Positions 28,985-55,350 of a stretch of 64,000 nt of DNA are shown piece after piece. Source of the stretch: a virus. The first letter of the stretch is position 1. Each line of letters begins with the position of its first letter. The notes beneath the pieces were generated by a model that was not told the origin of the DNA, did no database searches, and saw nothing but the letters and a program-made list of their open reading frames with translations. The stretch covers positions 32,001 through 96,000 of the IMG/VR virus record IMGVR_UViG_3300037502_002145; one strand, 5' to 3'. Made by a program: the position numbers and the translations under genes.

Positions 28985-29531
28985 AAAAGGGGTAAACAGA
29001 ATATGAAACGTGAAACATTGGAACAAATAGCAGTCGATATTTTATCTCTATCAATGGAACACAATGGAGAAGAAGATCAAATAATAGAAGAAGTTAAAAA
29101 CTTATCTGATGAAGAATTACAAAGATTTGTAAACGAATTATAAATTGAACTAACATTTTATTCATATTTTAGGAGGTACAGGCAATGAAAAAATATACCT
29201 ATAGTCAACTACCTGCAAGCGGTAAAAAATTAGCACTAGACAATTATCGTTGCATAGTTGAACGTAAAGCAAGTAATAAAGAAGCCCAAGAGTATTATAA
29301 TATGGGTGACGGTTACAATCCTATATTATTTAATAGTGAAGGGAATGAGGTAGACAACGATTAACAGTAAATAGAATTAAGAATTTATCAATATTATAGG
29401 AGGATCTATCCATGAAAGAAAATCAAATAATCGTAGGTTATAAAGAAGGCAAGAAAGTTAAAATTAAAGGTAGTAAGTTAAAATGGAACGTATTAGAACC
29501 TATTACCCTAACAGTTGTAAAATAGTTAGTC

Positions 29532-29580
29532 ATAGCATAACGGACGGCGTTTTAAATTGGTTCAATTCCAATAATGCTAT
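29532..29580 (+). ncRNA. tRNA-like half element (acceptor-like stem plus T arm)
   Basis: ATAGCAT/ATGCTAT stem enclosing ATTGG-TTCAATT-CCAAT. Confidence 0.4.
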
Positions 29581-29620
29581 TATGAAATAAATATAAAACA
29601 TAAAAGGAGATTAAGACAAT

Positions 29621-30289
29621 ATGAAAAACACTAAAATTTTAGAAATGATTAACAATGGAGAAATTGAAGAACTAAAAGCACTATTACAAGATGAAATTTA
29701 CAATGATACGCTAAACAGTAAAGCAGGATCAAAACAACGTTATGCGGCTATGAAACGTTATCAATCAAGTATTGGTAAATATGATAATGAATTATTTAAA
29801 CGTGTAGGCACTAACATTGATATTAAAGGAGAAAATTACAATTGTTTTATTGACGGTGTATGCCTTGCATTAACAACTGAAAACATTGGTGAACTAGAAA
29901 AACATGATAACAATAAACACGGTGAATATTTTAAAGTCGAAAGAATGATACCTGATTTATACATACCTCACGGTAAAGTTAATTATAAAGAAATTCTAGC
30001 AGAAGCAAAACAATTAGGATATAAATTCTCTAAGGTAGCTAAAAATAATAAAATCACTGTTAAAATAAGCAATGAACACTTAAACGTTGCTCTATTAGAA
30101 AAAGCATATAGCATAATAGATGATGGAGAAGAAGCAGAAATATTTATACCTAATGATAATGGAAAAAGTCCAGTAATATTTAAAACTTCAATTGGTATTT
30201 GTTTAGTGTTACCGATTAATATTAACAGCGATAATAATTTAGACTTAGTTATATTTGAAACAGAAATAAAAAATAAAAAAGTAGCTTAA
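29621..30289 (+). CDS. Hypothetical protein resembling the C-terminal domains of the beta sliding clamp
   Basis: FIDG, YFKVERMIP, LNVALL and SPVIF..LVLPI pattern. Confidence 0.4.
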   Translation: MKNTKILEMINNGEIEELKALLQDEIYNDTLNSKAGSKQRYAAMKRYQSSIGKYDNELFKRVGTNIDIKGENYNCFIDGVCLALTTENIGELEKHDNNKHGEYFKVERMIPDLYIPHGKVNYKEILAEAKQLGYKFSKVAKNNKITVKISNEHLNVALLEKAYSIIDDGEEAEIFIPNDNGKSPVIFKTSIGICLVLPININSDNNLDLVIFETEIKNKKVA

Positions 30290-30519
30290 TGAAATAAATA
30301 TAAAACATAAAAGGAGGTAATAATATTATGGATCTTGAAAAATTTTTAATAGAGTATGGGTTTTCAAATGAACAAATAAAAACACTTATAAAAAAACGTA
30401 CACTTAAAACAATGCACGGGGCTTATAAGTTAGATAAAAACAACAAGTTAACACTTAAAAGATATTAAATAGACTATAAAATCCTTGTTTTGTTGACAAG
30501 GTAGAAAAGAGGTAAACAG

Positions 30520-30711
30520 ATGCAAAACATTAGAAGAAAGTTAGTTGATAAACTTTGTCAGAACTGGAAATTTGATATAAATAATTTTGATAACATCATC
30601 ATTACAGTAAATAATAAAGGCTATTCAAGAAAAATATATAATCGTTTCTATCCTGAACATGCATATATTAATTTTAAAGGTGAAAAGTATTATTTTGAGA
30701 AGGAGAGGTAA
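30520..30711 (+). CDS. Hypothetical protein
   Basis: 63 aa with RBS. Confidence 0.45.
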   Translation: MQNIRRKLVDKLCQNWKFDINNFDNIIITVNNKGYSRKIYNRFYPEHAYINFKGEKYYFEKER

Positions 30712-30718
30712 ACAAATT

Positions 30719-30961
30719 ATGAAAACGGTTGATAATGATAAAATGACAATTACCTATGAAGATGAAAAGCTATCATGTAAGAAATTTATTTATTTAACTT
30801 ATGCAGATAGTAGCGACATAACATTTATCATGGAAGATATAATTGATATAAAATCAGGGCAATACGTTAGCATGGAAGTAAAAGGCTTTTTCTTTGGTGA
30901 ACCAACAATGGAAGGACTAAACGAATATTATAATAAGTTAAAAGCAGAATTCACATTATAA
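30719..30961 (+). CDS. Hypothetical protein
   Basis: GAGG RBS before ATG 30719. Confidence 0.5.
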   Translation: MKTVDNDKMTITYEDEKLSCKKFIYLTYADSSDITFIMEDIIDIKSGQYVSMEVKGFFFGEPTMEGLNEYYNKLKAEFTL

Positions 30962-30982
30962 AATGAAAGGAAATAATAATAT

Positions 30983-31180
30983 ATGATTATTCAAGCAAGT
31001 AAAACAGAGGAAAATATTTATTTCAACTATGGAGAAGTTAACGAAACAGATCTAGAAAAATTAAAAGATATAGCAGAAGACATATTTCCTATACTGTGCA
31101 ATTCATGGAATTGCGATGATATTACATTCAGATTTGTAAATAACAAAAAAATAATCGATACATTTAGATTATGGAGTTAA
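30983..31180 (+). CDS. Hypothetical protein
   Basis: 65 aa with AAAGGA RBS. Confidence 0.45.
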   Translation: MIIQASKTEENIYFNYGEVNETDLEKLKDIAEDIFPILCNSWNCDDITFRFVNNKKIIDTFRLWS

Positions 31181-31444
31181 ACAGAAACAGTAAACAAAAC
31201 AATTATTTGATTTAAATAGAAGGAGTTTAACATGATAACAAAAAGTGATATAGAAATGAAAACTTATGCAATATGGAAAGATCAGAAAGTAATAGGTTAT
31301 ATTGAACTAACAGAAGAACAAGCAAACAAATTAAACAGTAATCCTTTAACTGGTTTATATTTTGGTTTTGACAGAGTAACGAATCCAGAAAAGTATGTAC
31401 ATTAATAGAAAGGCTATTTGATCTTATAAGGAGGTTATAAAACA

Positions 31445-31681
31445 ATGTTTGAAATTGACAAAGATTATTTTGCAGACAATCCGCGAAATTATGATGATTG
31501 GATTAAGTATCCGATTACAGTATTCAAAAGAACAAAAAATTATTTATGGATTTACCACAAACACACGTTAAAAGATGAAGAGACTATAAGCGAGGATAAG
31601 TGCAAAAAGGTTAAAATTTATATGACAAATGGAGGATATGAGGGAATAAAAGTTAATGATGCATATTTTTATGCAGCATGA
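31445..31681 (+). CDS. Hypothetical protein
   Basis: 78 aa, AGGAGG RBS, bounded by junction palindromes. Confidence 0.55.
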   Translation: MFEIDKDYFADNPRNYDDWIKYPITVFKRTKNYLWIYHKHTLKDEETISEDKCKKVKIYMTNGGYEGIKVNDAYFYAA

Positions 31682-31718
31682 AAGGGTTATTTTATCACTA
31701 GGAAGGAGATATTGAACA

Positions 31719-32509: not shown

Positions 32510-32539
32510 TAATAACAATATGAAACGGAGGAAATAAAA

Positions 32540-34213
32540 ATGTCAACATATTATGAATATAGGGAAGTTGGAGTTATGATTGCACATAAATTAATGAATA
32601 TGGAAGGTTGGAAAGTTTACGGATATCATGCAGACGAAAGCGACAGTATGACAGATTATTATTCTCCTGCATGTTGGAACGGAGTAGCAGAAAAGAACGG
32701 CTATATTTTATGTGTAAATGTTTACGGATCAGCAAAACAAGAGGAAATAAGAAAATACAATTATAAAAACTTTTCTTATAGTAATGATATAAGCGAAAAG
32801 ATCAAAAAGCTTGAAGCAATGACAACAGAACGAGGTGCAAGTGAACAGGAAGAACAAAGCGCAAAAATGATGATTGAAAAATTACAGAAAAAAGCAGAAA
32901 CAGAAGTAGAAAACAATAATAAATATGTTGTTACAGGTTATATGCCTGGACATATGGCACACCCTCCAAAGTGTAACTGGCATATAGAGAAAGATGGCGT
33001 TATTATTGCAAAGGGTAACGGAATACTAAAATATAGTGAAGTTGATAATTATTATAAATACGATAGTTATAAAAAAGATATGAATGATTTTAGAAAGAAG
33101 TCAAAAGCGGAATATATAAAGGAATATGTAACAGATTATCAAAGACGATATAACGAATCAGATGTTGAAAAGATCACAAAATGGGCTGAAAGTCATTATA
33201 ATGATATGTTAAAGAAAAGTAATTTAATGAAACAATTTGAAGAATTTGTGAATAAATTAGATACAACTTGCGGTTGTTTAGTTGGTGAAGGTAGTCTTGA
33301 AACATACGAAAAAATCACTGTAACAGAATATAAAACAGAAAATAAAGCAATAGAAACAACAAGCGGAAGTATTAAAGAAGGTCAATGCTTTATAGTAAAA
33401 ACTTCTTTTAATTATGGTCATAATAAAGGTTATGTTTACCGTATACATGAAACAGAATATAACGGAAGAAAAGGTTTTCATGCGGTAAAACTAAACGGAA
33501 AATTAACAAAGGAATGCACAGGTACAGCCAACAAATCTAATTATTGGTATTTGACAGAAAATTTTATAAGATGGTTTGAAAAGGGAAGTCTTTCTTTCTG
33601 TAACATTGAAGAAGTTAAAACACCTTACGAAGTGGAAAAGGTAGTTAAAAAGGTTATTAAATCAGAAATGGAAGAACAACCAAAACAAGAAAAGAAAGCA
33701 ACCACAAAACAACCAGAACGGACAGCAACAACAAAATCAAATAATCTGACATATGATATTAAAGAAGATACTGACACCAGAGACAACAGCAAAATTTATG
33801 TTGTAAAGGTTATCGAAAAACTAGACAAAGACGAATATATAAAAGTTAATAACTATATGAAGTCAATCGGAGGATATTATAGCAAATTCAAACATGGCTT
33901 TATATTCAAGAATGATCCTACAGAATTTCTGAACAGTGATATTAAACATGAAGAAACAACAACACAAGAAAAACAAAAACAACAAGCTGAGCAGCCAACA
34001 CCAGAAGTCAAGCAGCCAGAAGTGAAACCGATTGATTTTGAGATAGAACAAAAGGATAAAATCTGGTTAGTTAAAATTAAAGATAATTTATCAAAGGATA
34101 AGTTTGCAGAGGTAAAACGAAATTTTGCAATACTCAAAGGGTTTTATTCTGGTTTGCATAGTAGTTTTATTTTCAAATATGATCCAACCGAAAAATTACA
34201 AAACAGTGCATAA
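32540..34213 (+). CDS. Multidomain (polyvalent-type) protein with a DUF2786-like segment and a duplicated C-terminal domain
   Basis: KIKKLEAMTTERGASEQEEQSAK motif; two copies of KI.VVK..GYYS.FKH.FIFK.DPTE. Confidence 0.55.
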   Translation: MSTYYEYREVGVMIAHKLMNMEGWKVYGYHADESDSMTDYYSPACWNGVAEKNGYILCVNVYGSAKQEEIRKYNYKNFSYSNDISEKIKKLEAMTTERGASEQEEQSAKMMIEKLQKKAETEVENNNKYVVTGYMPGHMAHPPKCNWHIEKDGVIIAKGNGILKYSEVDNYYKYDSYKKDMNDFRKKSKAEYIKEYVTDYQRRYNESDVEKITKWAESHYNDMLKKSNLMKQFEEFVNKLDTTCGCLVGEGSLETYEKITVTEYKTENKAIETTSGSIKEGQCFIVKTSFNYGHNKGYVYRIHETEYNGRKGFHAVKLNGKLTKECTGTANKSNYWYLTENFIRWFEKGSLSFCNIEEVKTPYEVEKVVKKVIKSEMEEQPKQEKKATTKQPERTATTKSNNLTYDIKEDTDTRDNSKIYVVKVIEKLDKDEYIKVNNYMKSIGGYYSKFKHGFIFKNDPTEFLNSDIKHEETTTQEKQKQQAEQPTPEVKQPEVKPIDFEIEQKDKIWLVKIKDNLSKDKFAEVKRNFAILKGFYSGLHSSFIFKYDPTEKLQNSA

Positions 34214-34228
34214 TAGGAGGAATTAAAA

Positions 34229-35890
34229 ATGTTTACAGACAACAAAGACTTCTACCCAACCCCAGACCATCTAATTAACAAGATGGTTTCGGGATTAGAT
34301 TTTAATTACATACACAGTATACTAGAACCATCAGCCGGTAAAGGAAATATAATTGATAAGTTAAAAGAAATTGAAAAGCCAGCTTACAGTTATAGTAGTA
34401 AGAAATATAATTTTGATATTGATTGTATAGAAATTGACGATAATTTGAGAAGCATATTAAAAGATAAAAACTATAGGTTAGTATATAACGACTTCCTGAC
34501 CTATGATACTATGAAAGAATACGATTTAATTATAGCAAATTTTCCATTCTCAAGCGGTGTCAAACATATGCTAAAAGCTCTAGAAATGCAAGAAAGAAAC
34601 GGAGGCGCAATAATATGCCTATTGAACGCTGAAACGCTTAAAAACGATTATACAAACGATAGAAAGTTATTAAACAGAAAGTTATCAGAGTATAGTGCAA
34701 CTATTGAATATTTACAAGAATCATTTATAGGAGCAGAACGCAGTACGTCAGTTGAAGTAGCACTAATTAAGGTTAAATTACCAGAAGTAAAAAGAGATAG
34801 TTTTATATTAGATGGACTAAGAAAAGCACAAGAACAGCGAGAAATTGAAGAAACAGAACAAACAGCAATAGTTGAGAATGATTTCTTTAAATCAATTATT
34901 GACCAATACCAATTAGAAGTTGAAGCTGGTATTAATTTAATAAAAGAATATAAAGCAATGAGCAAATATATCCTTTCAGAGTTTGCAAAGGATGAAGAGA
35001 CAGGCGAAACAATCCAAAAAGGAAATTGTATTTTAAAATTAGATTTGTCAAGTTATCACGATGGGTATAGAAGTAATCTTACAATAAACGGATATATAAA
35101 AGAAGTGCGTAAAAAGTATTGGAAAGCTTTATTTAATAATAAAGAATTTGTTGGAAAGCTTACCGAAAATTTAAGGCAAGACTTTTATAATAGACTTGAA
35201 GATCTAAGTAATTATGATTTTTCATTATATAATATTTATGAATTAAAAATAGAAATGAGCAAAAAAGTTGTTAAAGGCATTGAAGAAACAATCATTTCAT
35301 TATTTGAAGAATTAAGCCATAAGCACTCATGGGATAAAGAGTATTCAAGCAACATTCATTATTATAACGGCTGGAAAACTAATAAAAGTTGGATCATTAA
35401 TAAGAAGGTTATTATTCCTTTAAATGCTTATGATAACTATTCAGGACGATTTCAACCGACAAAATACCCATCAAAAGCAATTGATAAACTTACAGACATT
35501 GAAAAGTGTTTTAATTATCTTGACGGTGGATTAACAGAGGCAATAGACATTGAAGAGTCTTTGAAGTTTGCAGAAGAATTCGGGGAAACAAAAGACATAC
35601 AACTAAAGTATTTTACAGTAACATTTTATAAAAAAGGTACTTGTCATATTGTATTCAGTGATGAAAAATTACTCAAAAAGTTTAATATATTTGGATCGCA
35701 ACAAAAGGGCTGGTTGCCACCATCTTACGGTAAATCAACATATAAAGATATGTCAGCAGAAGAAAAAGCCGTTATAAACGAATTTGAGGGCGAGAAAGCA
35801 TATCAAGATACACTTGCAAATAAGAATTATTATATATTCAATTCCAATAGCATATTAATGTTAGAGGATAATGTCGAAAAATCAGCTTAA
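34229..35890 (+). CDS. Adenine DNA methyltransferase-like protein with C-terminal DUF4942
   Basis: DFYPTP, LEPSAGKG, DFL, IIANFPF (NPPF variant), FYKKGTCHI. Confidence 0.8.
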   Translation: MFTDNKDFYPTPDHLINKMVSGLDFNYIHSILEPSAGKGNIIDKLKEIEKPAYSYSSKKYNFDIDCIEIDDNLRSILKDKNYRLVYNDFLTYDTMKEYDLIIANFPFSSGVKHMLKALEMQERNGGAIICLLNAETLKNDYTNDRKLLNRKLSEYSATIEYLQESFIGAERSTSVEVALIKVKLPEVKRDSFILDGLRKAQEQREIEETEQTAIVENDFFKSIIDQYQLEVEAGINLIKEYKAMSKYILSEFAKDEETGETIQKGNCILKLDLSSYHDGYRSNLTINGYIKEVRKKYWKALFNNKEFVGKLTENLRQDFYNRLEDLSNYDFSLYNIYELKIEMSKKVVKGIEETIISLFEELSHKHSWDKEYSSNIHYYNGWKTNKSWIINKKVIIPLNAYDNYSGRFQPTKYPSKAIDKLTDIEKCFNYLDGGLTEAIDIEESLKFAEEFGETKDIQLKYFTVTFYKKGTCHIVFSDEKLLKKFNIFGSQQKGWLPPSYGKSTYKDMSAEEKAVINEFEGEKAYQDTLANKNYYIFNSNSILMLEDNVEKSA

Positions 35891-36027
35891 GTTATTCAAC
35901 GTAATTAATATAAAACTATTGACAAATGGGTAAAGTAGTATTATAATGATATTAACATAATAAATATAAAACTGAAATATCAATAAACTTGTAATTTTAT
36001 GGTCTTAATAAGACTAAGACAGAAAGG

Positions 36028-36258: not shown

Positions 36259-36676
36259 TATAAATAATAGAATTTATCTTATGAAAGGAGACAAACAAAT
36301 GGATAATTGGGAGCATGAAATGTTTCAACAAATGTGTATTGAAGACGATATTTATGAACAAAAAGACGAACAAAGAGAATATGACGAATGTATGTCTGAT
36401 TATTATAGCGGTAGTATGCAAATATAGATAAAAAGCAGATTTCATATAAGAAAGCGAGGTATATTAATGGAAGATAAAATTATGCAGATAATTAAAGAAG
36501 ACGAATTCTTTTGTCCTAACGAAACGGGATTTTATGATAAACCACAAGAAACATTTAACGCAATTAAAAAACTAGTGGATAAAGGATTAATAAGAAAAAG
36601 AAATTGTTTAGGGTTAGCATATGAATTAAACAAACAGTAAATAAAAGAATGTTTCTATTAACAGAAAGGAATCAAA

Positions 36677-36943
36677 ATGGAAAGAAGAAAAGTGTTATTT
36701 ACTACTGGTATGACAGATGATAAACAGATAATTATTACAGATGCATCAAAAGAAGAAATTGAAAAGTGGTGTTATAGATATAATGAATCATTAGAAAATG
36801 GGAAAAGTATAGAACCATTTGACACTTTAAAAACTCAATACTATGTGAAAGAATTACATGATTCTGAAATTGATGATAATGAAAACGTAGACATTATTGG
36901 ATATGACGAAGTATACGATCTATTTGATTATTACAGTAAATAA
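36677..36943 (+). CDS. Hypothetical protein
   Basis: 88 aa flanked by junction palindromes at 36641 and 36940. Confidence 0.55.
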   Translation: MERRKVLFTTGMTDDKQIIITDASKEEIEKWCYRYNESLENGKSIEPFDTLKTQYYVKELHDSEIDDNENVDIIGYDEVYDLFDYYSK

Positions 36944-37142
36944 AAAGTAAATTTTATAAACAATAAACATATAATGGAGGATTCAATCATGAAACAATAT
37001 TATTACATCCTAATCAATGGCAAGAAAGCCTATACTAACGATAATCCACCAGCTAAGAAAATCGCAATATTAACACAGACAATAAACAATTTCAAGCATA
37101 AAACTATGATTTTTTGATAACAATACTAATATAAAACTTAAA

Positions 37143-37707: not shown

Positions 37708-37967
37708 CGATATTAATATAAAACTTTATATTGACATTGAGTTTGAATAGTATTATAATGATAGTAGTTAAACAGATTGAAGAAAACTGGAAAAGGTTGT
37801 ATAATGTATCAATAAAATATTGATTTTATTGTATATAATGGTAACTTGAAAACCAGCGTCTTATTTGATATACTGAATAAGGCACATAAGTCTTATAAAT
37901 GATTATTATTGTTCTCTTTACAAATTACAATATCATCATTGCCTTATGTGCTATTTTTATATAAGGA

Positions 37968-38615: not shown

Positions 38616-39836
38616 ATGAAAACCACAAGAGCAGAACAACATATTATCAAAAAGAACAATCCTTTATGGCAAGTAGTAGACATCATGTGTTTTAAATCTA
38701 AGAACCTATATAACTTTGCCAATTATATTATAAGGCAAGAATTTATCAACAATGGTAACTGGATACATTACAATTCACTTTTTGATTTATGTAAAGAAAG
38801 TGAACCATATAAAGATTTAGGTAGCAATGTTGGTCAGGCAACATTAAGATTGTTGGATAAAAACTGGAAATCATTCTTCAAAGCCATAAAAGATTGGAAA
38901 CAGTATCCAAGTAAGTATTTAGGTAGACCTAGATTACCAAAGTATAAACCTAAAGATGGTAGATTTATTTTAAGTATTGATAATAATAAGGTAATGCTGA
39001 AGGATGGCTATATATACTTTGCTTGGAAACCATTAAAAGTATTGAATAACCACTTTATTACTAAAATACCACAAGATTGTAAAGTATTTCAATGCAGATT
39101 TATACCAAGTGGATCAAATTATACAATGGAAATAGTATATGAGATTGAAGTATCTGAACAACCGGAACATTCAGAAAGAATTATAAGCATTGATTTAGGA
39201 GTTGATAACTTTGTAACTATTACAAATAACATTGGACTAAAACCATTTGTTATTAAAGGCGGAGTAATTAAGTCAGTAAATCAATATTATAATAAAGAAA
39301 AAGCAAGAATACAATCCGAATTGAAAAAGGTTAATAAAAAAGATTGGAGTAATAAGTTACAGAAGTTGACTGATAAACGTAATAACAAAATTAAGTATTT
39401 GATGCATGTTTATAGCAAAAATATTATTGATTACTGCTTAAAGAATGGGATTGATACTATTGTATGCGGTTACAACAAAGAGTGGAAACAAGAATCTGAA
39501 ATGACTAAGAAAACTAATCAAAAATTTGTAACCATACCATATGAAATATTTATAAGCATGTTAGATTATAAATCATTAGATAGTGGCAAGAAGTTTATTT
39601 TGAATGAGGAAGGCTATACGTCTGGAACATCATTTTTAGACAACGAAGAACCAATTAAGACTAACTACAATAAAAGTAGAAGAGTTCATAGAGGTTTATT
39701 TGTTAGCAACAATGGTATTAAAGTCAATGCTGATGTAAACGGAAGTTACCAGATAATGAAGAAAGTATTCCCAAACGTCTTTGACAATGGGATAGAGGGT
39801 GCAGGTTTACACCCAATGGTATTTAAAATTGCCTAA
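38616..39836 (+). CDS. tnpB: Solo TnpB-family RNA-guided nuclease (GYN..WKQ / EExYTS type, no Zn finger)
   Basis: SKNLYN, PRLPKY, SIDLG, CGYNKEWKQ, EEGYTS, NADVNG; no tnpA nearby. Confidence 0.85.
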   Translation: MKTTRAEQHIIKKNNPLWQVVDIMCFKSKNLYNFANYIIRQEFINNGNWIHYNSLFDLCKESEPYKDLGSNVGQATLRLLDKNWKSFFKAIKDWKQYPSKYLGRPRLPKYKPKDGRFILSIDNNKVMLKDGYIYFAWKPLKVLNNHFITKIPQDCKVFQCRFIPSGSNYTMEIVYEIEVSEQPEHSERIISIDLGVDNFVTITNNIGLKPFVIKGGVIKSVNQYYNKEKARIQSELKKVNKKDWSNKLQKLTDKRNNKIKYLMHVYSKNIIDYCLKNGIDTIVCGYNKEWKQESEMTKKTNQKFVTIPYEIFISMLDYKSLDSGKKFILNEEGYTSGTSFLDNEEPIKTNYNKSRRVHRGLFVSNNGIKVNADVNGSYQIMKKVFPNVFDNGIEGAGLHPMVFKIA

Positions 39837-40039
39837 GTGATTGATAAATCCATAAATCGGTTATAAAAACCGAATAAATTACTTATTTTACAGAAAGGAG
39901 AGCATAAAACAGTGTACTTTGCAATAGGAGTTATATATTTAATATACGTAATAATAAGTCACTTAACATATCCAAAAAGAGCAGATAAACAGACGAGAGA
40001 ATATAGAGAAAAACAAGATAAGGAGCTGGGATTAGAGCC

Positions 40040-40270: not shown

Positions 40271-40443
40271 TGAAAGGAGTATAGAACTATGTGGATATTA
40301 AAATTATTACTACTACCTTTTATTGGTGGAATTGATTATTGTAACACAATGAGAAAAATTAAAAAACTAGATAATGATCCAACTAGTACAATAAAGAGTG
40401 ATGACTGGTATAGAAAAAATGGTAAATGAAAGGATGATTGATT

Positions 40444-41427
40444 ATGTGCTATAAGACAGAGAAACAGAAAAAAGAAAAGTTAAAACTAAAAGAAAAAATA
40501 AATGATTTACCTAAGTTTATAAAAGATTATTTTTCATATTTAAACAGTAATGTAACAAAATTAAATAACTGTGGCATCATAAGGAGTTTTCTTGAATGGT
40601 TAATATCTGAAGGAATAATAAAAAACAGCATAGTAAATATCACACCATCAGATTTAAGTTTGGTTACAGACATAGATTTAATTGAATATTTAAGTGGATT
40701 AAATAACAGTTTATCATCAATTAACACTAAAAAAAATGTAATAAGTGGATTTTGGGCTTATTTATTAGATAAAGAATATGTAAAAACCAACATTGTAAAT
40801 AAAAAGCTACACGATAAATTTAAGGCAAAAGATAAAGAAGTAGTAGTACCAACAGACGAAGATATTTATCAGTTTATAGTTAATATTAATAATATCAAAA
40901 ATGAAACTATAGCATTAAGAAACATTGCAATTGTAAGGTTATTCATGGGTAGCGGAATCCGAATTGAAGAATTAGTTGGATTAGACGTTATAGATTTACA
41001 TTTTGAAAACGAAGATGAACCATATGTGGTTGTCATGGGTAAGGGCATACAAGATGAAGACGATAAGCAAAATGTTGCAATTAATAAGGCTGCTATGGAT
41101 GCCATTAATGATTATTTACAAGTAAGAAACACAATTCCTGACATTAAAGAAACAAAAGCTTTATTTATATCAGAACAGTTGAATAAAGAAACCGGTAAAA
41201 GAACAAGAGTTGCTCAAAGTTCAATACAAGATTTTTTTAGAAAATACAGTAATGGAGCGATTCACCCACATCTATTAAGACATTATGCTGGTACTAAAAT
41301 GTATGAAAACAGTAATGATATTGTAGCTGTAGCCGCTCAATTAAGACATGGTGATGTAAACACAAGTAGAAAGTTTTACATCAAGAATAATAAGAGTGCA
41401 ACTTATAAAGCGTTAAACAGTTTTTAA
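40444..41427 (+). CDS. Tyrosine recombinase (Xer/integrase family) with intact catalytic residues
   Basis: SGIRIEEL (R), GKG (K), HLLRH (HxxR), LRH..TSRKFY (H, Y); no arm-binding domain evident. Confidence 0.9.
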   Translation: MCYKTEKQKKEKLKLKEKINDLPKFIKDYFSYLNSNVTKLNNCGIIRSFLEWLISEGIIKNSIVNITPSDLSLVTDIDLIEYLSGLNNSLSSINTKKNVISGFWAYLLDKEYVKTNIVNKKLHDKFKAKDKEVVVPTDEDIYQFIVNINNIKNETIALRNIAIVRLFMGSGIRIEELVGLDVIDLHFENEDEPYVVVMGKGIQDEDDKQNVAINKAAMDAINDYLQVRNTIPDIKETKALFISEQLNKETGKRTRVAQSSIQDFFRKYSNGAIHPHLLRHYAGTKMYENSNDIVAVAAQLRHGDVNTSRKFYIKNNKSATYKALNSF

Positions 41428-42173: not shown

Positions 42174-42197
42174 TCTACATAAAACAGAGATTCTAAT

Positions 42198-43230: not shown

Positions 43231-43851
43231 ATGAAAATAATAAATGAGTTAAAAAAAGTTTTTTTTGATAAAATTAATGCAAAAACTAATATACAGAGTA
43301 TTAATATATCTATTAAAGAAATAATTCATATTTTAATTTTAGCAACTGCTATACAAACATTTGGAACAATGATATTGCAACTGCTTTATTTATTAGAGGT
43401 GGATTCAATTAAAATTTATTTTGAGTATGTAGAAAATTTTGATATTGAAACTAGTTTATTTTATAGGATTTTTTACACTCCCATATTAGAAGAAATTTAT
43501 TTAAGGTTTGTTATTTTAAAAATATTTTTTATACAACTGATGGAATTATCTTTTTTTGTTGCTAATATTATTCAATCTATGATTTTTGCTGTGATGCATG
43601 GTAATATTGTACAGGTCTTTTACTCATCTTTATTTGGCATTTTAGTATGATGTTTATATGTTAAATATAAGAAACTATTGATATGTGTTATATTTCATGT
43701 ATATATGAATTTTACTGGAAATATTGCTACATCAATAATACATCCTATATTAGATAACAAATTACTAATTGTAATATTTATAGTAATTGGTGGTATGGTA
43801 ACGTTTATGGAGATTAAAAGATTATTTTTTAATAATAATTTAACAATATGA
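43231..43851 (+). pseudogene. CPBP/Abi intramembrane metalloprotease interrupted by an in-frame TGA at 43648-43650
   Basis: EEIYLR and FAVMH motifs before the stop; HVYMN motif and a TM helix in the same frame after it. Confidence 0.7.
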
Positions 43852-44206
43852 AAGAAGAGTAGTTTTATTTGGAAAAATACACCATAAATGGTGTGTTATA
43901 ATACCTTTTTATAAAAATATAACATAATTAATATAAAACTTTAAAAAATGTATTGACACTTTTACCTTTAGGTGTTATATTTATATCACAAAGCAAACAA
44001 TAATATAAAACTTTAAAATTGTTTGCATAATACATCAAGGAAATGAATATAATACTATATAAAGGTGAAGGAGAGTGTCTGATAAATATGAATAATACAA
44101 TATGTTTATATTGAATACAAGTGAATTGATAAGGAGAAAAAATAATGAAAAATATTAAAGATGATTCTAGCTGACTAATAATAATGAAATGAGAGGATGA
44201 TTATAT

Positions 44207-44635: not shown

Positions 44636-44719
44636 TTTGTATTGACAAAAAATGCAATTATATGCTAATATTGAATTAATACAGTTACATATTTATATTG
44701 TTAGGGGGCGATAATATAT

Positions 44720-45967
44720 ATGAAGATGGATGAAGATAAACTTAGAGAAGTTTTAAGAGAAGCAATTTTAGATTTAAATAAAAAACCAAATTATATAGAA
44801 ACAAGATTTAAAGAAATGATGCATACGATGTATAATATAACACCGGGGGATTCGGCAGATATATTAAATGGTAAGCTTGCAGTTGAACTAATGTCTGATG
44901 ATATGATGTTTAAATTAACTAGTGTGTTATTTGAGATTAACTCACATCTAGATGATGGATATAATACAATAAAATTAGATGTGACCAAGTATTTTTTTGA
45001 CAATGAAATTAATAAATACAAAGAAAAGATAAAAAAAGAAAAAGTATACGGTGATATAATATTTGATAATTGGCTTAAAATTGATGAAGATCATTATAAA
45101 GTTGTATTAGAAAACGATGAACTGTATGAATTGTGTAGTACAAATAGAATTAGATACAATCCTGAAACACAAAGAGATTTAACAATAAAAGAAACTAAGA
45201 CTGGTATAGTAAAGCAAATAACTTATTCTGAAGACGCTTTAAATGATATAGTATTGTCGATGGAAAACAATCGATATATAACTGACGATTTGAGTTTTAA
45301 TGTTAATCCGGATTATTATGAACCACCTAGAGTAATTAATAATAAGTTAGTCGCTTCTGGAAAAACGGTATTTGATTGTATTGACGGATATCATAGAATA
45401 AAAGCGTTTATAATAGTGAAGATGAAAAACCCAAATTGGAACAAAAGAATGTCAATTAATATAATGAGTTTTGATAAAGATAAGGCTAATCAGTGGATAA
45501 TACAACAAGACGAAAAAGTTCATTTATCAGATGAACAAGTAACTAGATCTGATAATACCGATGCTGCTAATGCCATTATAAAAAAATTAAATGAAAGTAG
45601 TACGTTTATTTTTAGAGATACATTATCTGACATTAAGTATAGTTTGAATAAAATGATAAATAAAATTTTTAATCCTAAAAAACTTAATACAATTCAAGAT
45701 AGACAGGATGCAGCCAAGTTAAGTAAAACAATTGAAAAAAATATTAATGATTTAATTGAAGAAAAAAATCTATTTAGCAGTCCTTTTACAAAAGAAGAAT
45801 GGTTTGTATATCTTTATTTATTAAAATACAGTTTAGACAGTAAAAAAAACTTCGTAGATGTTGTTAGTAGCATATCAGTTGATGTTATATTAAACGAAAT
45901 TGCTTTTGTGAATGAACCATTAAAAAAACATTATAATTTATTAAATGAGGTGATTAAAAATGTATAA
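44720..45967 (+). CDS. ParB/DndB-like (DGxHR) protein, SPbeta YopQ-like
   Basis: YNPETQR and CIDGYHR motifs; overlaps the downstream integrase-fold gene. Confidence 0.6.
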   Translation: MKMDEDKLREVLREAILDLNKKPNYIETRFKEMMHTMYNITPGDSADILNGKLAVELMSDDMMFKLTSVLFEINSHLDDGYNTIKLDVTKYFFDNEINKYKEKIKKEKVYGDIIFDNWLKIDEDHYKVVLENDELYELCSTNRIRYNPETQRDLTIKETKTGIVKQITYSEDALNDIVLSMENNRYITDDLSFNVNPDYYEPPRVINNKLVASGKTVFDCIDGYHRIKAFIIVKMKNPNWNKRMSINIMSFDKDKANQWIIQQDEKVHLSDEQVTRSDNTDAANAIIKKLNESSTFIFRDTLSDIKYSLNKMINKIFNPKKLNTIQDRQDAAKLSKTIEKNINDLIEEKNLFSSPFTKEEWFVYLYLLKYSLDSKKNFVDVVSSISVDVILNEIAFVNEPLKKHYNLLNEVIKNV

Positions 45968-46922
45968 TCCAAAGCAAAAAGAATGGTATATGAAAGATAG
46001 TAACTACGAAGAAACGACTGTAGAATTATTAGAAAAGATATTTAATTCAACTGAGTTTGAAGAAAATAATGTTTTTGAAAAAGACGTGTGTTATTTTAAT
46101 CAATTAGAGGTTACAGATCTTTTAAAAAGTTTAAATTCTAAATCAAGATTGAGGCTGCAAAATATTTGTGTATATTTAAAAAAATATTATGACTGGTGTT
46201 ATAGAAAAAATATAGTTCAAAATATTGACAATCCATTTGATAGAACTATTACTGACATAATTATTGACGATATAATACCAAAAGAGGATATTAGTGATAA
46301 ATATTTTAATGAAGAAACATTGTTGGAGTACAAAGATAAAGTAAAAGACCCAATGAATAAATTTATTTTATATGCGATATATAGTAGTATTAAAGGTGAT
46401 GAATATTGTGATTTAGTTAATTTAAAAATGAGTGATTTAGACGAAAAAAATAAGACTGTTACAACTATAAGTGGAAGGATTGTAGAGGTAAATGATTTAT
46501 TCATACAACTAATGAAAGACGCTGACAGACAAACACATTACTATCCAAATGGTGAAATACCTGAAACAAATTTTGATAATAATCGTTATCCTGATAGTCC
46601 ATATGTTATTAAGACCTGTAGAGCAACTCCTGATCCTGTAAAATACCAAATAGTAGCAAACAGATTAAAAGTAATAAAAAATCAAACAGAAAATGAGTTT
46701 ATGAGTGTTAACATATTATATAAGAATGGGTTAGTTAATTATATACAGAAAAAATTTGCTCTTAAAAACATTACATTAAAAACAGCGCTTACTCAAAAAA
46801 TAAATGGTAGAACATACACTTATGATACAGAAACAGAACAATATATTAAAGAGTTTGGATCATTAATTACGGTAAGAATGTTAAGAAGAGAAATAGTAGA
46901 TTATTTGAATTGTTATGAATAA
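45960..46922 (+). CDS. Catalytically degenerate tyrosine-recombinase-fold protein, YopR/MrpR-like master repressor
   Basis: MYN..QKEWY..FE...EKDV.YF N-terminus; IKGDEYCDLVNLK replaces GxR; no HxxR; synteny with the YopQ-like gene. Confidence 0.65.
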   Translation: MYNPKQKEWYMKDSNYEETTVELLEKIFNSTEFEENNVFEKDVCYFNQLEVTDLLKSLNSKSRLRLQNICVYLKKYYDWCYRKNIVQNIDNPFDRTITDIIIDDIIPKEDISDKYFNEETLLEYKDKVKDPMNKFILYAIYSSIKGDEYCDLVNLKMSDLDEKNKTVTTISGRIVEVNDLFIQLMKDADRQTHYYPNGEIPETNFDNNRYPDSPYVIKTCRATPDPVKYQIVANRLKVIKNQTENEFMSVNILYKNGLVNYIQKKFALKNITLKTALTQKINGRTYTYDTETEQYIKEFGSLITVRMLRREIVDYLNCYE

Positions 46923-47596: not shown

Positions 47597-47953
47597 GAGA
47601 GAAAGGCAGTCTAACGGCTGCCAAATTTTTTAAATTCAAGGAAATAAATATAAAACTGAGTGTTGACAAGTGGTAATACATGTGATATGATTAACTCAGA
47701 TGATAAAGAGAGGGGCGAAAGCTGGTGAATTCAAGTTGAAAACTTATAGAGATATTCAAATTCTAGATATAAAAATCAAATACAACGAGAAATTAATTAA
47801 AATAGAAGAAACAAAAGATAAACCAGATCAAAAGAAAATAAATAAATGGTTAGAAAACATAGAAATACATGAGAAAGAGAAGAAAGAAGATTGATGAAAT
47901 AGGAGTTTTATTCACCAAGGTTATTAATATAAAACTAAAAGGAGTTAGAATAT

Positions 47954-48277: not shown

Positions 48278-48338
48278 GAATCAAAGAAGTCTTTTATAAA
48301 GAAACTAATATAAAACTAAAACAAGAAAGGATGTTTAA

Positions 48339-49154: not shown

Positions 49155-49668
49155 CACGAAGAAATAAAACCAAGATTTTATAAAGAGAAAGGAGATTACT
49201 ATGACTTGTGAAAAATGTGGTAACGATGATGGCGATAAATATTGTTTTCCACCGGAAGAAGGAAACGATCAATTTGAAACACTAGAATATGAAAGTTCAA
49301 CATCAAACTGGGATGATTGGGATTTTTGTGGAAGTTTTAAATGTAAAAAATGTGGGCATATTAGAACGGTTAGTCAGTAAAACTGGTATTTCATCAACGT
49401 CACTAATATAATACCTAGAAAGGAGATTGCTATGATTTACGTTTTGCCACCTACTACTGAAGATAAATATGGAGAAGAATTCCACAAGCCAACTCAGGCT
49501 GAATTAGACGATATTTTCAGAGAGGAGGATGGCGAAGATGAGTCTATACAAGATAATTGAATTATTGGTATACATAGTTTGTGGCGGATATATTACATAT
49601 AGTGTTTTTACATGTATTGGAATAGTGTCAGGAAGAAAAAGAACGAGATAAAAGTCAATTTTTATTAA

Positions 49669-50118
49669 GTGGGAAGGAGTAGTATGGAAAGATTAACAAA
49701 GCAATATTCTGCTGGTTATGGGTTATTAAAAACAAATGATGAATTTTGTGATTCTTACTGTAAAAAACAGATGGTTGAAACGTGTAATGAATGTGCTATT
49801 AATGAAGCAATACATAAATTGGCAGAGTATGAAAATACAGGACTAACACCAGAAGTTTGTAAAAATTATAAACTGTTTGAAGACGAAGTTATAGCCAGTG
49901 GTAGAGATTTTAACTACATATTAAAATTATTAAAAGATGATGTAAAGCGTAAACCTATGAAACCAGAAAGGTTAACATATAAAGCCTTGCTTGAATTGGG
50001 TTGGAGATGGCAATGCCCCAATTGTATGGCAGCAACTGGTGAAAACATTTATCACCCAGATGTAACGGGTGATGAAAACTATTGTTGCACTTGTGGACAG
50101 AAACTTGATTGGAAATAA
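49669..50118 (+). CDS. Hypothetical protein with C-terminal Zn ribbon
   Basis: KLAEYENTGLTPE; CPNC..YCCTCGQKLDW. Confidence 0.6.
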   Translation: MGRSSMERLTKQYSAGYGLLKTNDEFCDSYCKKQMVETCNECAINEAIHKLAEYENTGLTPEVCKNYKLFEDEVIASGRDFNYILKLLKDDVKRKPMKPERLTYKALLELGWRWQCPNCMAATGENIYHPDVTGDENYCCTCGQKLDWK

Positions 50119-50332
50119 AATGTGGATTTTAAATGGAAAGGCGTAACATGAAAATTAAAAATAAAAAAGTAAGAGATGTCTTACATGATGTTATTAAGGA
50201 TCTTGCAAATGCAAGTAAAAATTCGTATAGTCTTGTAGGAGCAACTAGAAGAGATATTGACTCGGCAAGGTCGAGGATAAACACACTGTTAACGTTAATT
50301 GATTTTGAAGAAGAATAGAAAAGGAGAATAAT

Positions 50333-50864: not shown

Positions 50865-50894
50865 TAATCATACATTAGAAAGGAGCTGGGTCAA

Positions 50895-51101: not shown

Positions 51102-51230
51102 GTAAAGGATATTAATATAAAACTTAAATTAAATAAAATAAAACCGTGTTTTTATCAAGAAAAAAAGAAGTTTTACAATGGAATAATCAAAAATATTAAG
51201 ATTGTTCCAAATCAATTATTAAATATAATT

Positions 51231-51746: not shown

Positions 51747-51792
51747 AAATATAACAATAATATATATAACAAATAGTAAAAGGAGAATGTAA

Positions 51793-53073
51793 ATGTCAGA
51801 TAGATTAACCATATGTAGAAAAATAAAACTTTATCCAGTAGGAGATAAAGAAGAAATAAATAGGACATACAAATTTATAAGAGATGGTCAGTATTATCAA
51901 TATAAAGGTTTAAATTTATTAATGGGGCAATTAGTAAGTAAGTTCTATGAGTGTGGAATGGATCTAAAAAGTCAAATATTTAAAGATTGGCAAAATGTTA
52001 ATTTATGTAATACAAATCAGTTTTTAGATTTAGATTTTGCAAAAGGAGTTGACACTAAATCTTTAATAAAGCAAAAAGTAAAACAAGATTTTTCAACAGC
52101 TATAAAGAATGGATTAATGAAAGGTGAAAGAAATCCACCTACATACAAAAGAGATTTTCCATTATTGACAAGAGGAAGAGATTTGAAATTTTATCATGAA
52201 TATGAAGATTATCCAGAATTTTTAAGTAATTTACGTAAGAATAATGATGTTGTATTTATTAAGTGGGTCAATGGTATTGTATTTAAAGTGGTGTTAGGCA
52301 ATCCTAAAAAATCACAAGAGTTAAGAAGTGTGATTCAACAGATATTTGAAGAAAATTACAAAGTTCAAGGAAGTACGATAGAAGTGAATGATAAGGAAAT
52401 AATATTAAACTTATCAATATCAATACCAAAGAAAACAATAGAACTTAATGAAGATACATCTATTGGAGTAGACTTAGGAATCGCAGTACCGGCTGTGTGT
52501 GCCGTTAATAACAATGATTATAAAAAGTGTTTTATAGGCTCTAAAGATGACTTTTTAAGAGTTAGAACACAATTGCAAAATCAAAGGAAAAGACTTCAAA
52601 GATCACTAAAATCAACTTCTGGTGGACATGGAAGAAGTAAAAAATTATCTTCGTTGGATAATTTAAAAGATAGAGAATCAAATTTTGTTCAAACTTACAA
52701 TCATTATGTTAGTAAGCAAGTAGTGGATTTTGCAATTAAAAATAAAGCTAAATATATTAACATGGAAGATTTGAGTGGTTTTGATTCAAGTGAGTTTATA
52801 TTGAGGAATTGGAGCTATTATCAATTACAACAATATATAACATATAAAGCAGATAAATATGGAATAGAAGTTAGATACATTAATCCATATCATACATCTC
52901 AAATATGCTCTTGCTGTGGACACTGGGAAGAAGGACAGAGAATTAATCAGTCAACATTTGTTTGTAAGTCTTGTGGTTATTCTGTTAATGCAGATTTTAA
53001 TGCTGCAAGAAATATAGCAAAGTCAGATAAATATATTTCTAAGAAAGGAAGTGGTTCAGTTGCAAAAGAATAA
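51793..53073 (+). CDS. cas12f: Cas12f1 (type V-F) miniature effector, 426 aa
   Basis: RuvC GVDLG / MEDL / NADFN intact; YKRDFPLLTRGRDLKF, GGHGR, WSYYQLQ and CSCC..CKSC, as I recall for RhCas12f1/AsCas12f1; adjacent array and anti-repeat. Confidence 0.85.
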   Translation: MSDRLTICRKIKLYPVGDKEEINRTYKFIRDGQYYQYKGLNLLMGQLVSKFYECGMDLKSQIFKDWQNVNLCNTNQFLDLDFAKGVDTKSLIKQKVKQDFSTAIKNGLMKGERNPPTYKRDFPLLTRGRDLKFYHEYEDYPEFLSNLRKNNDVVFIKWVNGIVFKVVLGNPKKSQELRSVIQQIFEENYKVQGSTIEVNDKEIILNLSISIPKKTIELNEDTSIGVDLGIAVPAVCAVNNNDYKKCFIGSKDDFLRVRTQLQNQRKRLQRSLKSTSGGHGRSKKLSSLDNLKDRESNFVQTYNHYVSKQVVDFAIKNKAKYINMEDLSGFDSSEFILRNWSYYQLQQYITYKADKYGIEVRYINPYHTSQICSCCGHWEEGQRINQSTFVCKSCGYSVNADFNAARNIAKSDKYISKKGSGSVAKE

Positions 53074-53128
53074 TTGATTAAATCAATGATACTAATATAA
53101 CACAATAACAAATAAAAAGGAGATAGTT

Positions 53129-53572
53129 ATGGATAATAATGACGAATATTTAAAGAAACTAAATAACATGATTAAAATGTCGGTAGAAGACGTAATGGCA
53201 TTAAACAATTTATTAACAGGTGTTAAGCAGGGTACAAATAAAGTTGATAACGTAGTTAGAATTAATGGTAACAACTTTACAGATTACGATAAGGCTATTC
53301 AGTACATAAACAACTTGAAAAACAAAGATTCATCCTATACTTGGTATGAATACAATGTACAGAAATTTGGTATAGGATATGCAATTCTTAAGTGGTGTCA
53401 ATCTAATGATAAGTATTACAATGAAAGAATGCTTAATTTAGCAATCAGTGAATACTCAGATAATATCAGTAAAAACGAAGGCGATTTTGCAAAACAAGTT
53501 TTAGAAATTTACAACAAAATTCTATCATTACCACAGTACAGAGGAAAAAGATTTGAAGGATTAACTAGATAA
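53129..53572 (+). CDS. Hypothetical protein downstream of cas12f
   Basis: 147 aa with AAGGAG RBS. Confidence 0.55.
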   Translation: MDNNDEYLKKLNNMIKMSVEDVMALNNLLTGVKQGTNKVDNVVRINGNNFTDYDKAIQYINNLKNKDSSYTWYEYNVQKFGIGYAILKWCQSNDKYYNERMLNLAISEYSDNISKNEGDFAKQVLEIYNKILSLPQYRGKRFEGLTR

Positions 53573-53604
53573 AATGAGAATTATATTCAGAAAAGGAGAA
53601 TTGA

Positions 53605-54048
53605 ATGAGTACTAGAATGATATTTATTGAAGAAGAATTAGCTGGTAAGTTAGAAATAATTAACGATGTTGTAAAGATCAACAACGATGATATTAATAAA
53701 ATCATTAAGAGATTGGCAGATGATACTACGCTAATGAGTGAGTGTTTGGATGAAAATGTTTTAAGGTTTAAACTTCATGCTCAACAGACAAGGGATGCTT
53801 ATAAAAAAGTAGTAGAAGAAATTGAAAAGATGATTATAGAAGAATTTAGAAAACATCCTATGGTCGATGAAGTTAATTATATAGAAATTCCAAATCCAAG
53901 TGTGCGAGGAAAATATTCAACAAGACTGGATATAGATGAAACACTTGATGATATAAATTCAATTAGAGAAAAGGTCAAACATTATGTAAACAATGAAGTA
54001 TTTAGAGCACTTGTTGAGGTTGGAGAAAGATATATGAGTAAAAAATAA
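53605..54048 (+). CDS. Hypothetical protein
   Basis: 147 aa with RBS. Confidence 0.55.
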   Translation: MSTRMIFIEEELAGKLEIINDVVKINNDDINKIIKRLADDTTLMSECLDENVLRFKLHAQQTRDAYKKVVEEIEKMIIEEFRKHPMVDEVNYIEIPNPSVRGKYSTRLDIDETLDDINSIREKVKHYVNNEVFRALVEVGERYMSKK

Positions 54049-54088
54049 CGAACATAAAAATTGATTCTGTGCTGAGAAAGGAGATTTA

Positions 54089-54322
54089 ATGAAACAAGAA
54101 ACATACTTTTGCGACTTATGCCATCAACAGGTAGAAAAAGACAAATTACATATAGGTTATTTTGTAAATATATTAAACAGTGGTTTTGGATTAAAGGATG
54201 ATGAAAAATATACGGATGAAAAACTTGATCTGTGTGATAAATGTTTAGATTTATGTACTCCGGTGATTAAGTATGGAGATAAATTTAAGGTGCGAGAATA
54301 TAACAAAGGTGGATACCTATAA
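54089..54322 (+). CDS. Small Zn-binding protein
   Basis: YFCDLC...DLCDKC. Confidence 0.55.
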   Translation: MKQETYFCDLCHQQVEKDKLHIGYFVNILNSGFGLKDDEKYTDEKLDLCDKCLDLCTPVIKYGDKFKVREYNKGGYL

Positions 54323-54543
54323 AAACAACATTTTATAGTGAAGGAGAATTTAAATGAATAGAAAATATATTATTGAACTTACAGGAATTAATGAAGATTA
54401 TCAAGATGATGTAGAAGGAAATATAGAAGAACTTTTTAACAATGTCGTAGAATTTTCAGAAGAAATAAAAATAACAGATATTACAGAAGATGAAGAGTAG
54501 TAGATAAATGTAACATTTTATTGGGAAAATAGGAGGTGGCTAT

Positions 54544-54966
54544 ACGAATATTTTAGAGTGTTCTTCAAAAGGCGATAAGAGATTTTCTGCTTTCTTTGCT
54601 TGGATTACATTATACGGCAAGAACGCAAATATAGAAACTCATTATCAAAGTTGTAAAAGATTTAATGATTCTACAATTGACAAAGTAAAGGGTAAACAAC
54701 CTGATTACATAGTTATAAACGGAAAAGAGTTAGATAAGAAATACTTAACACCATTTTATAAATTACTTTGGGTAAAGTATTTAGATATGCATCCAGAATT
54801 AGTAGAATACGCAAGTAAGTTTGATGATTTTCATGACGTATTCAAAGGTAAGAATACTATCAATTGCCAAGCAGACGTAGTTAGACAATATGTTAAGCAA
54901 GGTAGAAAAAGCATTATGGACGAAGAACTGGTTAAAGAGTTTATAAGTAAATTAAAGAGTAAATAA
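54544..54966 (+). CDS. NADAR-like protein with non-canonical (ACG) start, 140 aa
   Basis: AGGAGG-7 nt-ACG; ILECSSKGDKRFSAF..IETHYQSCKRF..KGK..DVF..NCQA. Confidence 0.5.
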   Translation, partial: TNILECSSKGDKRFSAFFAWITLYGKNANIETHYQSCKRFNDSTIDKVKGKQPDYIVINGKELDKKYLTPFYKLLWVKYLDMHPELVEYASKFDDFHDVFKGKNTINCQADVVRQYVKQGRKSIMDEELVKEFISKLKSK

Positions 54967-54986
54967 TTTCAGAAAGGATAAAATAA

Positions 54987-55304
54987 ATGTTTAGTCAAGT
55001 AATAAAACAGCAAGAAGCTGAAATATCATTGCTAAAAATGGAATTACAAGCGTATAAAGACTCCGAAGAACAAGGATTATTAGTTAAACTTCCATGTAGA
55101 GCTGGTGATACTATTTACGATATTTATGAATTTATCAATAACAGATGTCAACCTGAAATTATTGAATATAAGGCAGATACAATTGGAATAAAAAAAGATA
55201 AAAGTGGTAGATTATATTTTATTATTGATAGTACTATATTTCACCCAGAAGATTTCGGAAAAACTGCATTTTTAAATAAAGATGATGTGATAAAAAAATA
55301 TTAA
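54987..55304 (+). CDS. Hypothetical protein
   Basis: EEQGLLVKLPC..GDT..FGKTAFL, a common Clostridia phage motif. Confidence 0.55.
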   Translation: MFSQVIKQQEAEISLLKMELQAYKDSEEQGLLVKLPCRAGDTIYDIYEFINNRCQPEIIEYKADTIGIKKDKSGRLYFIIDSTIFHPEDFGKTAFLNKDDVIKKY

Positions 55305-55350
55305 AGTACAAATAAATGAGGCATTTTATTTAGAGAAAGGAGGTGATAAA

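Follow-up and report, generated by a model that had tools for sequence, protein, structure and literature searches.

The window analyzed here is a 64,000-nucleotide stretch comprising bases 32001-96000 of a 115,871-bp virus record (IMGVR_UViG_3300037502_002145; 30% GC), and its subject is a short palindrome, ATAAAA-N6-TTTTAT, that recurs between the genes of the phage. Coordinates refer to the window unless the record is named. Gene order in this large phage agrees with that of Bacillus phage SPbeta, and it can be classed as SPbeta-like: matches include, at the record's left end, a serine integrase resembling SprA, and further the tape measure, terminase, YonJ and YonV proteins, and Sak, DnaB, YorJ and DnaE. 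A YonO-like RNA polymerase (17366-20296, minus strand, 976 amino acids) is 24% identical to YonO, the single-polypeptide RNA polymerase of SPbeta, and has homologs in three other viral contigs (G001-G003). An SPbeta-type lysogeny block occupies 44207-46922, with MazF-like (44207-44635), YopQ-like (44720-45967) and MrpR/YopR-like (45960-46922) genes. A conserved N6-adenine methyltransferase with DUF4942 (34229-35890, plus strand, 553 amino acids) serves below as an anchor for locating syntenic sites elsewhere; because its best relatives are found in Clostridium and Lachnospiraceae genomes, the host is probably a member of the gut Clostridia.

The palindrome occurs at all 29 positions listed by a first-pass annotation of this DNA, which had proposed an integron-like system of gene cassettes; six of these copies are perfect, 14 carry one mismatch and nine carry two, and none carries three. 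The perfect copies lie at 36940..36957 (with a stop codon within the left arm), 37812..37829, 49164..49181, 49648..49665, 51138..51155 and 54319..54336, the copies at 49648 and 54319 each overlapping a stop codon. Copies with one mismatch are found at 30476..30493, 31678..31695 (stop codon within the left arm), 36641..36658, 37098..37115, 50115..50132 and 53569..53586 (both overlapping stop codons), 54504..54521 and 55312..55329, as well as at 47894..47911 and 48280..48297, where the palindrome is followed by the motifs TTAATATAAAAC and TAATATAAAAC, respectively. Three further one-mismatch copies lie in the structural, minus-strand arm to the left: 10893..10910 and 16279..16296, which adjoin minus-strand motifs (TAATATAATAC and TTAATATAAAACT), and an intergenic copy at 2166..2183 that is absent from the earlier list. 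Two mismatches are present at 29144..29161 (ATTGAA ctaaca TTTTAT, directly 3' of a stop codon), 29371..29388, 39874..39891, 42179..42196 and 49377..49394, and at 31194..31211, 31405..31422 and 43851..43868, which are uncertain. Three sites just beyond the methyltransferase are distinguished by their spacers and receive particular attention below: ttgtaa (35983..36000), aataga (36260..36277, with two arm mismatches) and agcaga (36428..36445).

This palindrome is a real and widespread feature of the phage. The six perfect copies in the window compare with a mean of 0.34 in dinucleotide shuffles, none of 100 of which reached six. Across the whole record, where the palindromes are spread throughout, the arms occur at a spacing of six with 13 perfect and 24 one-mismatch copies, whereas the same arms at spacers of 0-5 and 7-14 yield only 0-2 perfect and 3-13 one-mismatch copies; the enrichment is limited to the 6-base spacing. 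A reversed, non-complemented control pattern has no perfect copy in the whole record. The first-pass annotation had staked its proposal on enrichment beyond AT-matched intergenic DNA, and such enrichment is evident in the 14.2 kb of intergenic sequence (72% AT), where the observed counts and the means of AT-matched shuffles are 6 and 0.06 without mismatches, 20 and 1.27 with at most one, and 34 and 13.0 with at most two. Since the shuffles reach 13.0 of 34, roughly one in three sites with two mismatches could be a chance match; the two-mismatch site at 36260 can nevertheless be considered real because it is kept in other phages. The conserved element spans 18 bp, with arms of 6 bp each and a weaker seventh position around exactly 6 bp, and conservation outside it drops to background. 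This agrees with the earlier description of the geometry as that of a tyrosine-recombinase core site, with inverted arms around a fixed 6-bp center. A literature search on the motif found no relevant description.

The sites are placed with considerable regularity. They lie directly 3' of stop codons or across them, and the next start codon follows 3-45 nt downstream, which bears out the original observation that they stand 3' of a stop codon and 5' of a ribosome-binding site. A site is present at 22 of 52 gene junctions in record positions 53.9-88.6 kb and at 11 of 17 junctions in 98.3-115.9 kb. The reported absence of sites from core operons stands for the Sak-to-DnaE block, in which none of three junctions has a site of at most one mismatch; the structural arm is less densely occupied but does contain sites, at 10 of its 42 junctions (2166, 10893 and 16279 among them). 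The polarity that had been read from an A at the sixth spacer base is similarly reduced: A is found at 20 of the 27 listed sites, and at 18 of 36 when all oriented sites are counted, a weak bias. A separate indication comes from the plus-strand arm of SPbeta (NC_001884; L113-L115), in which ATAAAA-N6-TTTTAA occurs 13 times and its mirror, TTAAAA-N6-TTTTAT, three times; the two arms of the SPbeta site may be non-equivalent.

A symmetric DNA site for a putative dimeric protein fits the element best. Mismatches are distributed symmetrically between the arms (four A>G on the left, five T>C on the right), and no sense-strand G-U pattern was seen among them; this symmetry is more in keeping with a dimer-bound DNA site than with a sense-strand RNA. 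Folded as RNA, the palindrome has a mean free energy of -1.15 kcal/mol, compared with -0.53 kcal/mol for shuffles, and the earlier judgment that so weak a stem cannot serve as a terminator holds. A search of Rfam returned no match at any palindrome site, and neither a promoter nor a terminator is contained in the 18-mer. A role as an RNA hairpin or terminator was rejected on the free energy and the mismatch spectrum.

Related elements are found in other phages. SPbeta harbors ATAAAA-N6-TTTTAT at a spacer of 6 only, in 13 perfect and 25 one-mismatch copies. The three viral contigs G001-G003, which were found via a 557-amino acid protein encoded beside the methyltransferase, share about 20 genes with this phage in addition to the two methyltransferase-like genes (21-61% amino acid identity, mean 32-37%); they contain no ATAAAA-N6-TTTTAT, and in G002, G003 and G001 there are instead 18, 15 and 6 copies of TGAAA-N6-TTTCA, compared with 0.7-1.9 at other spacings. 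These copies are intergenic and adjoin ribosome-binding sites. The variant in distant Clostridia phages, TTGAAA-N6-TTTCAA, is itself symmetric, the left A-to-G change being matched by a right T-to-C change, and an arm consensus of WTRAAA ... TTTYAW covers both this form and the ATAAAA/TTTTAT arms of the present phage. Several Clostridia prophage loci also carry the palindrome, one of them with nine copies in 21.6 kb abutting GGAGG; in locus L070 the palindromes abut GGAGG, which once falls inside the spacer. In G002 (56457, 73493) and G003 (46683, 62590), the spacer tgtgct is kept twice, in direct order and 16-17 kb apart. Two active partner sites in this arrangement would be expected to undergo deletion, and at least one of the pair may therefore be a background match. 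As for the gene pair itself (32540-34213, the 557-amino acid product of which has a weak methyltransferase match, and 34229-35890), its identity is 57-69% in three distant phages and rises to as much as 78% in Clostridia genomes, while most other shared genes lie at 21-47%; by the look of it, the pair is either horizontally mobile or strongly conserved. A general link between the palindrome and these genes, with the former as methylation target, was rejected, as most of the 80 loci with this methyltransferase have no palindromes.

The relation of the sites to gene exchange can be followed in SPbeta, whose yopR-yorG region was compared with eight relatives. Every one of the 10 palindrome junctions in this region is a homology breakpoint in at least one of them, and on average in 5.5; of 30 junctions lacking a palindrome, 14 are breakpoints, on average in 1.5 relatives (Fisher p = 0.002, Mann-Whitney p = 6e-5; approximate values, as the eight relatives are not mutually independent); when the comparison is restricted to non-palindrome gaps of at least 20 nt, 8 of 20 are breakpoints (p = 0.0015). 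The first-pass annotation had put forward exactly this coincidence of gain and loss breakpoints with the motif as a check. Alignments that start near a palindrome do so at -8 to +1 relative to its first base in 28 of 31 cases. Among these relatives the 18-mer is identical letter for letter, spacer included, and the sequences to its left and right are combined in many ways; the site ATAAAA gatgca TTTTAA, for example, joins at least four left and at least four right flank types in different pairings. Arm variants travel with the adjacent flank, which places the exchange between the arms. The central region is common to the reassorted sites, and any homology-dependent exchange would leave the same trace. 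In G002 and G003, three individual events have a breakpoint in or adjoining a site; in one of these, a 2.4-kb segment of G002 lies between two sites where G003 has a single hybrid site.

The spacers, which had been described as freely variable, are conserved position by position across phages. In the window, ttgtaa, aataga and agcaga mark the first three sites 3' of the methyltransferase; in two Lachnospiraceae prophage loci (L036 and L037), ttgtaa, aataga and agcaca follow in the same order 3' of the homologous methyltransferase, the third differing at one base. A further prophage locus (L041; the three loci belong to G004-G006) has ttgtaa, likewise 3' of the homologous methyltransferase, and aataga only, and aataga is also present in G001, L033 and L038. 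The flanks of the three sites differ between the window and the prophages, and the open reading frames between them (76 and 48 amino acids here; 59, 53, 79 and 84 amino acids there) have no similarity at E = 1e-3. Exact spacer matches between this phage (G000) and G005 number two genome-wide, compared with about one in the control, which is not significant alone; only the collinear trio beside the anchor gene is significant, and it carries the weight. Among three Lachnospiraceae prophages, 17-22 spacers per pair are shared collinearly over 60 kb, and the 60-nt flanks are unrelated on both sides at 50 of 59 shared sites. Spacers differ at each junction of one genome, although their uniqueness within a genome is at about the level expected by chance. 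Because the spacer differs between junctions of one genome and is the same at the corresponding junction elsewhere, it behaves as a position-specific address.

Taken with the recombinase genes described below, the observed enrichment, the geometry and the conserved 18-mers with reassorted flanks lead us to infer protein binding, a strand-exchange mechanism and an acting enzyme. We lean, with some reserve, towards the view that these palindromes serve as crossover hinges, each specific to its position, where gene modules of SPbeta-like phages meet. The inverted arms of 6-7 bp would let a symmetric protein bind at all sites, and the spacer would supply an address that is unique to each junction within a genome and the same at the corresponding junction in another. 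If two related genomes were present in one cell, an exchange at the same address would swap everything on one side of it, and two such exchanges would replace the contents of one gene slot while gene order was kept. Address order is collinear between phages, which argues for replacement at fixed slots over shuffling. The cassette-delimiting role first proposed thus stands in part: sites do lie at module boundaries, at homology ends and at points of flank reassortment in related phages, but order is collinear and genes are not shuffled. A more specific and more tentative proposal, which we would not yet call probable, is that SPbeta-like phages of Bacillota possess a natural system of multi-site exchange, in which dozens of core sites with shared arms and their own 6-bp addresses allow an Xer-like recombinase to swap single slots between co-resident relatives with order kept.

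The likeliest agent would be a phage-encoded Xer-like tyrosine recombinase, a class that needs inverted arms and matching overlaps of 6-8 bp. Two genes are candidates for this role, singly or together. The first, at 40438..41427 (plus strand, 329 amino acids), encodes the enzyme to which the first-pass annotation had pointed; its set of R, K, H-x-x-R, H and Y is complete, it looks catalytically intact, and homologs 39% identical to it are found in G002 and G003. The second, a YomM-like gene outside the window (record 25662-26681; L129:1663-2682:-), is the one conserved in every palindrome-bearing phage examined: it is 34% identical to SPbeta YomM (E = 5e-47), is kept in this phage, SPbeta and G001-G003, has homologs 7-14 kb from the prophage loci in four of five genomes tested, and retains the R-K-H-R-H-Y residues in this phage. 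Both recombinases match XerA, XerH and XerD structures and the generic Phage_integrase family. Each of the two genes encodes the full catalytic set, and either may be cognate to the palindrome.

Several points weigh against a crossover role. The conserved arms are short (6-7 bp) and AT-rich, whereas the arms of Xer, Cre and Flp sites measure 11-13 bp, and the tight placement 5' of ribosome-binding sites could indicate a different primary role. At the level of junctions, the comparison of G002 with G003 is not significant, those with the motif being broken no more often than the rest (2/16 vs 28/190 and 4/20 vs 27/179). The 's' fragment that distinguishes phi3Ts from phi3T has no palindromes at its bounds, and in laboratory hybrids of phi3Ts and SPbeta, 15 of 16 junctions fall at homology regions (bioRxiv 10.1101/2020.05.06.055103). 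The assignment of an enzyme is weakened in SPbeta, where a Lys stands opposite the second catalytic Arg in the alignments of YomM and of YopP; Pfam likewise detects no catalytic domain in SPbeta YomM. Finally, two segments of the window had no megablast match among 50,697 phage records, and no close relative of the phage emerged when viral and metagenome contigs were scanned with its YopQ-like and YonO-like proteins; the breakpoint evidence therefore comes from other phages and not from its own lineage.

A third protein of the recombinase fold, the MrpR/YopR(SroF)-like repressor of the lysogeny block (45960..46922, plus strand, 320 amino acids), matches PDB entries 8bj6, 8a0a and 9rd5. In SPbeta, chromatin affinity purification sequencing of MrpR identified a 15-bp SPBRE motif with ten peaks in promoter regions, and phi3T SroF binds an asymmetric operator box of 24-26 bp as a monomer (PMC10516654; bioRxiv 10.1101/2025.11.27.690993). 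As these homologs read an asymmetric site of 15-24 bp, and SroF does so as a monomer, the repressor is an unlikely reader of the palindrome, and the possibility that the palindrome is its operator was rejected. The phage also carries a second, asymmetric motif with the core ATATAAAAC and the extended form AAGGAnAtTAATATAAAAC(T); the 10-mer ATATAAAACT is present in 28 copies, all in the orientation of the genes. Copies lie on the plus strand at 35908, 35964, 37129, 37716, 43931, 44003, 46969, 47648, 47927, 48308, 50564, 50627 and 51115 and on the minus strand at 16298, 22233 and 22286, either 2-6 nt 5' of TTGACA in consensus sigma-A promoters or directly 5' of a ribosome-binding site. This motif is a candidate either for an SPBRE-like operator, bound by the MrpR-like repressor, or for a phage promoter element.

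Of the alternatives to crossover hinges, a regulatory origin survives best; it is a serious rival, even if we judge it rather improbable. The palindromes could first of all be operators of a dimeric protein or RNA elements 5' of ribosome-binding sites, and recombination could be a by-product, as for the promoter-early stem-loops (PeSLs) of T4-type phages (PMC2839356): as the palindrome is the only sequence common to otherwise unrelated genes, it would offer accidental short homology for Sak-type annealing or template switching. The position of the sites 3-45 nt before start codons favors such a role, as do the GGAGG-abutting sites of L070, the occurrence of sites in both early and late arms, the Sak annealing protein encoded by the phage, and the hint of polarity in SPbeta, where the downstream arm ends in A at 13 plus-arm sites and the mirror form is found at three. 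However, the RNA version encounters the unstable hairpin, the missing G-U pattern and the lack of any Rfam match noted above, and the 18-mer contains neither promoter nor terminator. A regulator blind to the spacer would also leave unexplained the fact that phages of different hosts share each spacer exactly at the corresponding position when both flanks differ, and a stretch of 18 bp offers very little length for annealing-based recombination.

The integron-like system of the first-pass annotation, in which cassettes of one to a few genes would be excised as circles, inserted and shuffled by the 40438-41427 recombinase, is now very unlikely. It would account for the single small genes between sites, the frequent overlap with stop codons, the intact tyrosine recombinase encoded nearby, and the 2.4-kb G002 segment opposite a hybrid site in G003. 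The likeness to an integron extends to sites at the ends of single genes and the involvement of a tyrosine recombinase. Integron cassettes, however, enter at one attI downstream of Pc and change order, whereas addresses here are collinear between phages and cassettes do not move as units with changing order. Spacers differ at each junction, so that two sites of one genome would not be partners. attC sites are imperfect palindromes of 57-141 bp that are recombined as folded single strands; the present 18-bp element has no attC-type structure, no integron integrase (IntI) family hit was obtained, and attI and Pc were not identified. The palindrome system is not an integron.

We give equally little credence to the action of host XerC/XerD at these sites in place of a phage enzyme. 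The 6-bp central region resembles that of dif, and pdif modules on Acinetobacter plasmids provide a precedent for modules bounded by Xer sites (PMC6449649). Yet Bacillus and Clostridia phages alike use this arm sequence, conservation within each arm is limited to 6-7 bp, and the phages carry Xer-like genes of their own; to our knowledge, moreover, the palindrome arms are unlike the dif consensus. The notion that the palindrome is a terminator of little strength, or arises by chance in AT-rich intergenic sequence and has no specific role, deserves next to no weight: in a genome of 30% GC two-mismatch matches are indeed common (76 in the window, 57 expected), but the spacing specificity and the 20 sites found where AT-matched intergenic shuffles give 1.27 refute a chance origin for sites of at most one mismatch, the motif is kept across distant phages, and the hairpin is too weak for termination.

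Other features of the accessory and late arms can be mentioned briefly. Three TnpB genes (OrfB_IS605 and a Cas12f-like TNB domain) lie in the accessory arm, at 38616-39836, 51793-53073 and 55492-56538, and Pfam scans of the 20 largest right-arm open reading frames found no other transposase families. A tRNA gene is present in the late arm (15912-15995, minus strand; Rfam RF00005, 59.8 bits).

The significance of a hinge role would lie in an old open question, namely how phage genomes come to be mosaic while gene order is kept. Competing views invoke selection among random illegitimate joints or exchange at conserved linkers. Here, the linkers would be concrete 18-bp sites with position-specific centers, found from Bacillus SPbeta to prophages of gut Clostridia, and a built-in mechanism for ordered mosaicism would follow. 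SPbeta is genetically tractable, and the idea is directly testable. If an enzyme is involved, the sites would represent a natural set of orthogonal recombination sites and would explain the fast turnover of small accessory genes; Gad1 and Gad2 occupy palindrome-bounded slots in relatives of SPbeta.

Known systems resemble this one in different respects. SPBRE, the operator of MrpR and SroF, is likewise a repeated intergenic element of the same phage family with a reader of the tyrosine-recombinase fold, a homolog of which is encoded here at 45960-46922. Unlike the palindrome, a symmetric 6-N6-6 element with a non-consensus center, SPBRE is an asymmetric site of 15-24 bp at promoters, a description that the separate motif AAGGAnAtTAATATAAAAC fits better. 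PeSL cassettes of T4-type phages (Arbiol et al. 2010; PMC2839356) are closer in genomic setting: both are short conserved intergenic repeats between small non-essential genes of a large phage, gene-content differences between relatives map to them, and PeSLs too are seen as drivers of modular exchange. PeSLs are much longer, however, with a sigma-70-like promoter and a transcription-terminating stem-loop, and they recombine with one another within a genome to yield mini-circles; the palindrome, at 18 bp, has no promoter or stable hairpin (mean -1.15 kcal/mol), and each of its junctions has its own 6-bp center that is conserved between phages.

In the dif modules of Acinetobacter plasmids, host XerC and XerD act on pdif sites whose arms measure 11 bp. 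As in the present phage, many Xer-type sites with a 6-bp center bound accessory modules in different replicons (PMC6449649). The pdif sites are found on plasmids, while the palindromes lie in a phage with Xer-like genes of its own, have nearly symmetric arms of 6-7 bp, and keep a fixed order of addresses. A further parallel is engineered. Heterospecific lox and FRT sites, used for recombinase-mediated cassette exchange with Cre and Flp, have 13-bp arms in common for one enzyme and recombine only with partners of identical spacer, so that two different flanking sites permit exchange without deletion. We know of no natural multi-site version of this type of exchange in a phage. The palindromes likewise share their arms and may likewise depend on spacer identity; by analogy, they would work like heterospecific recombinase sites or pdif modules.

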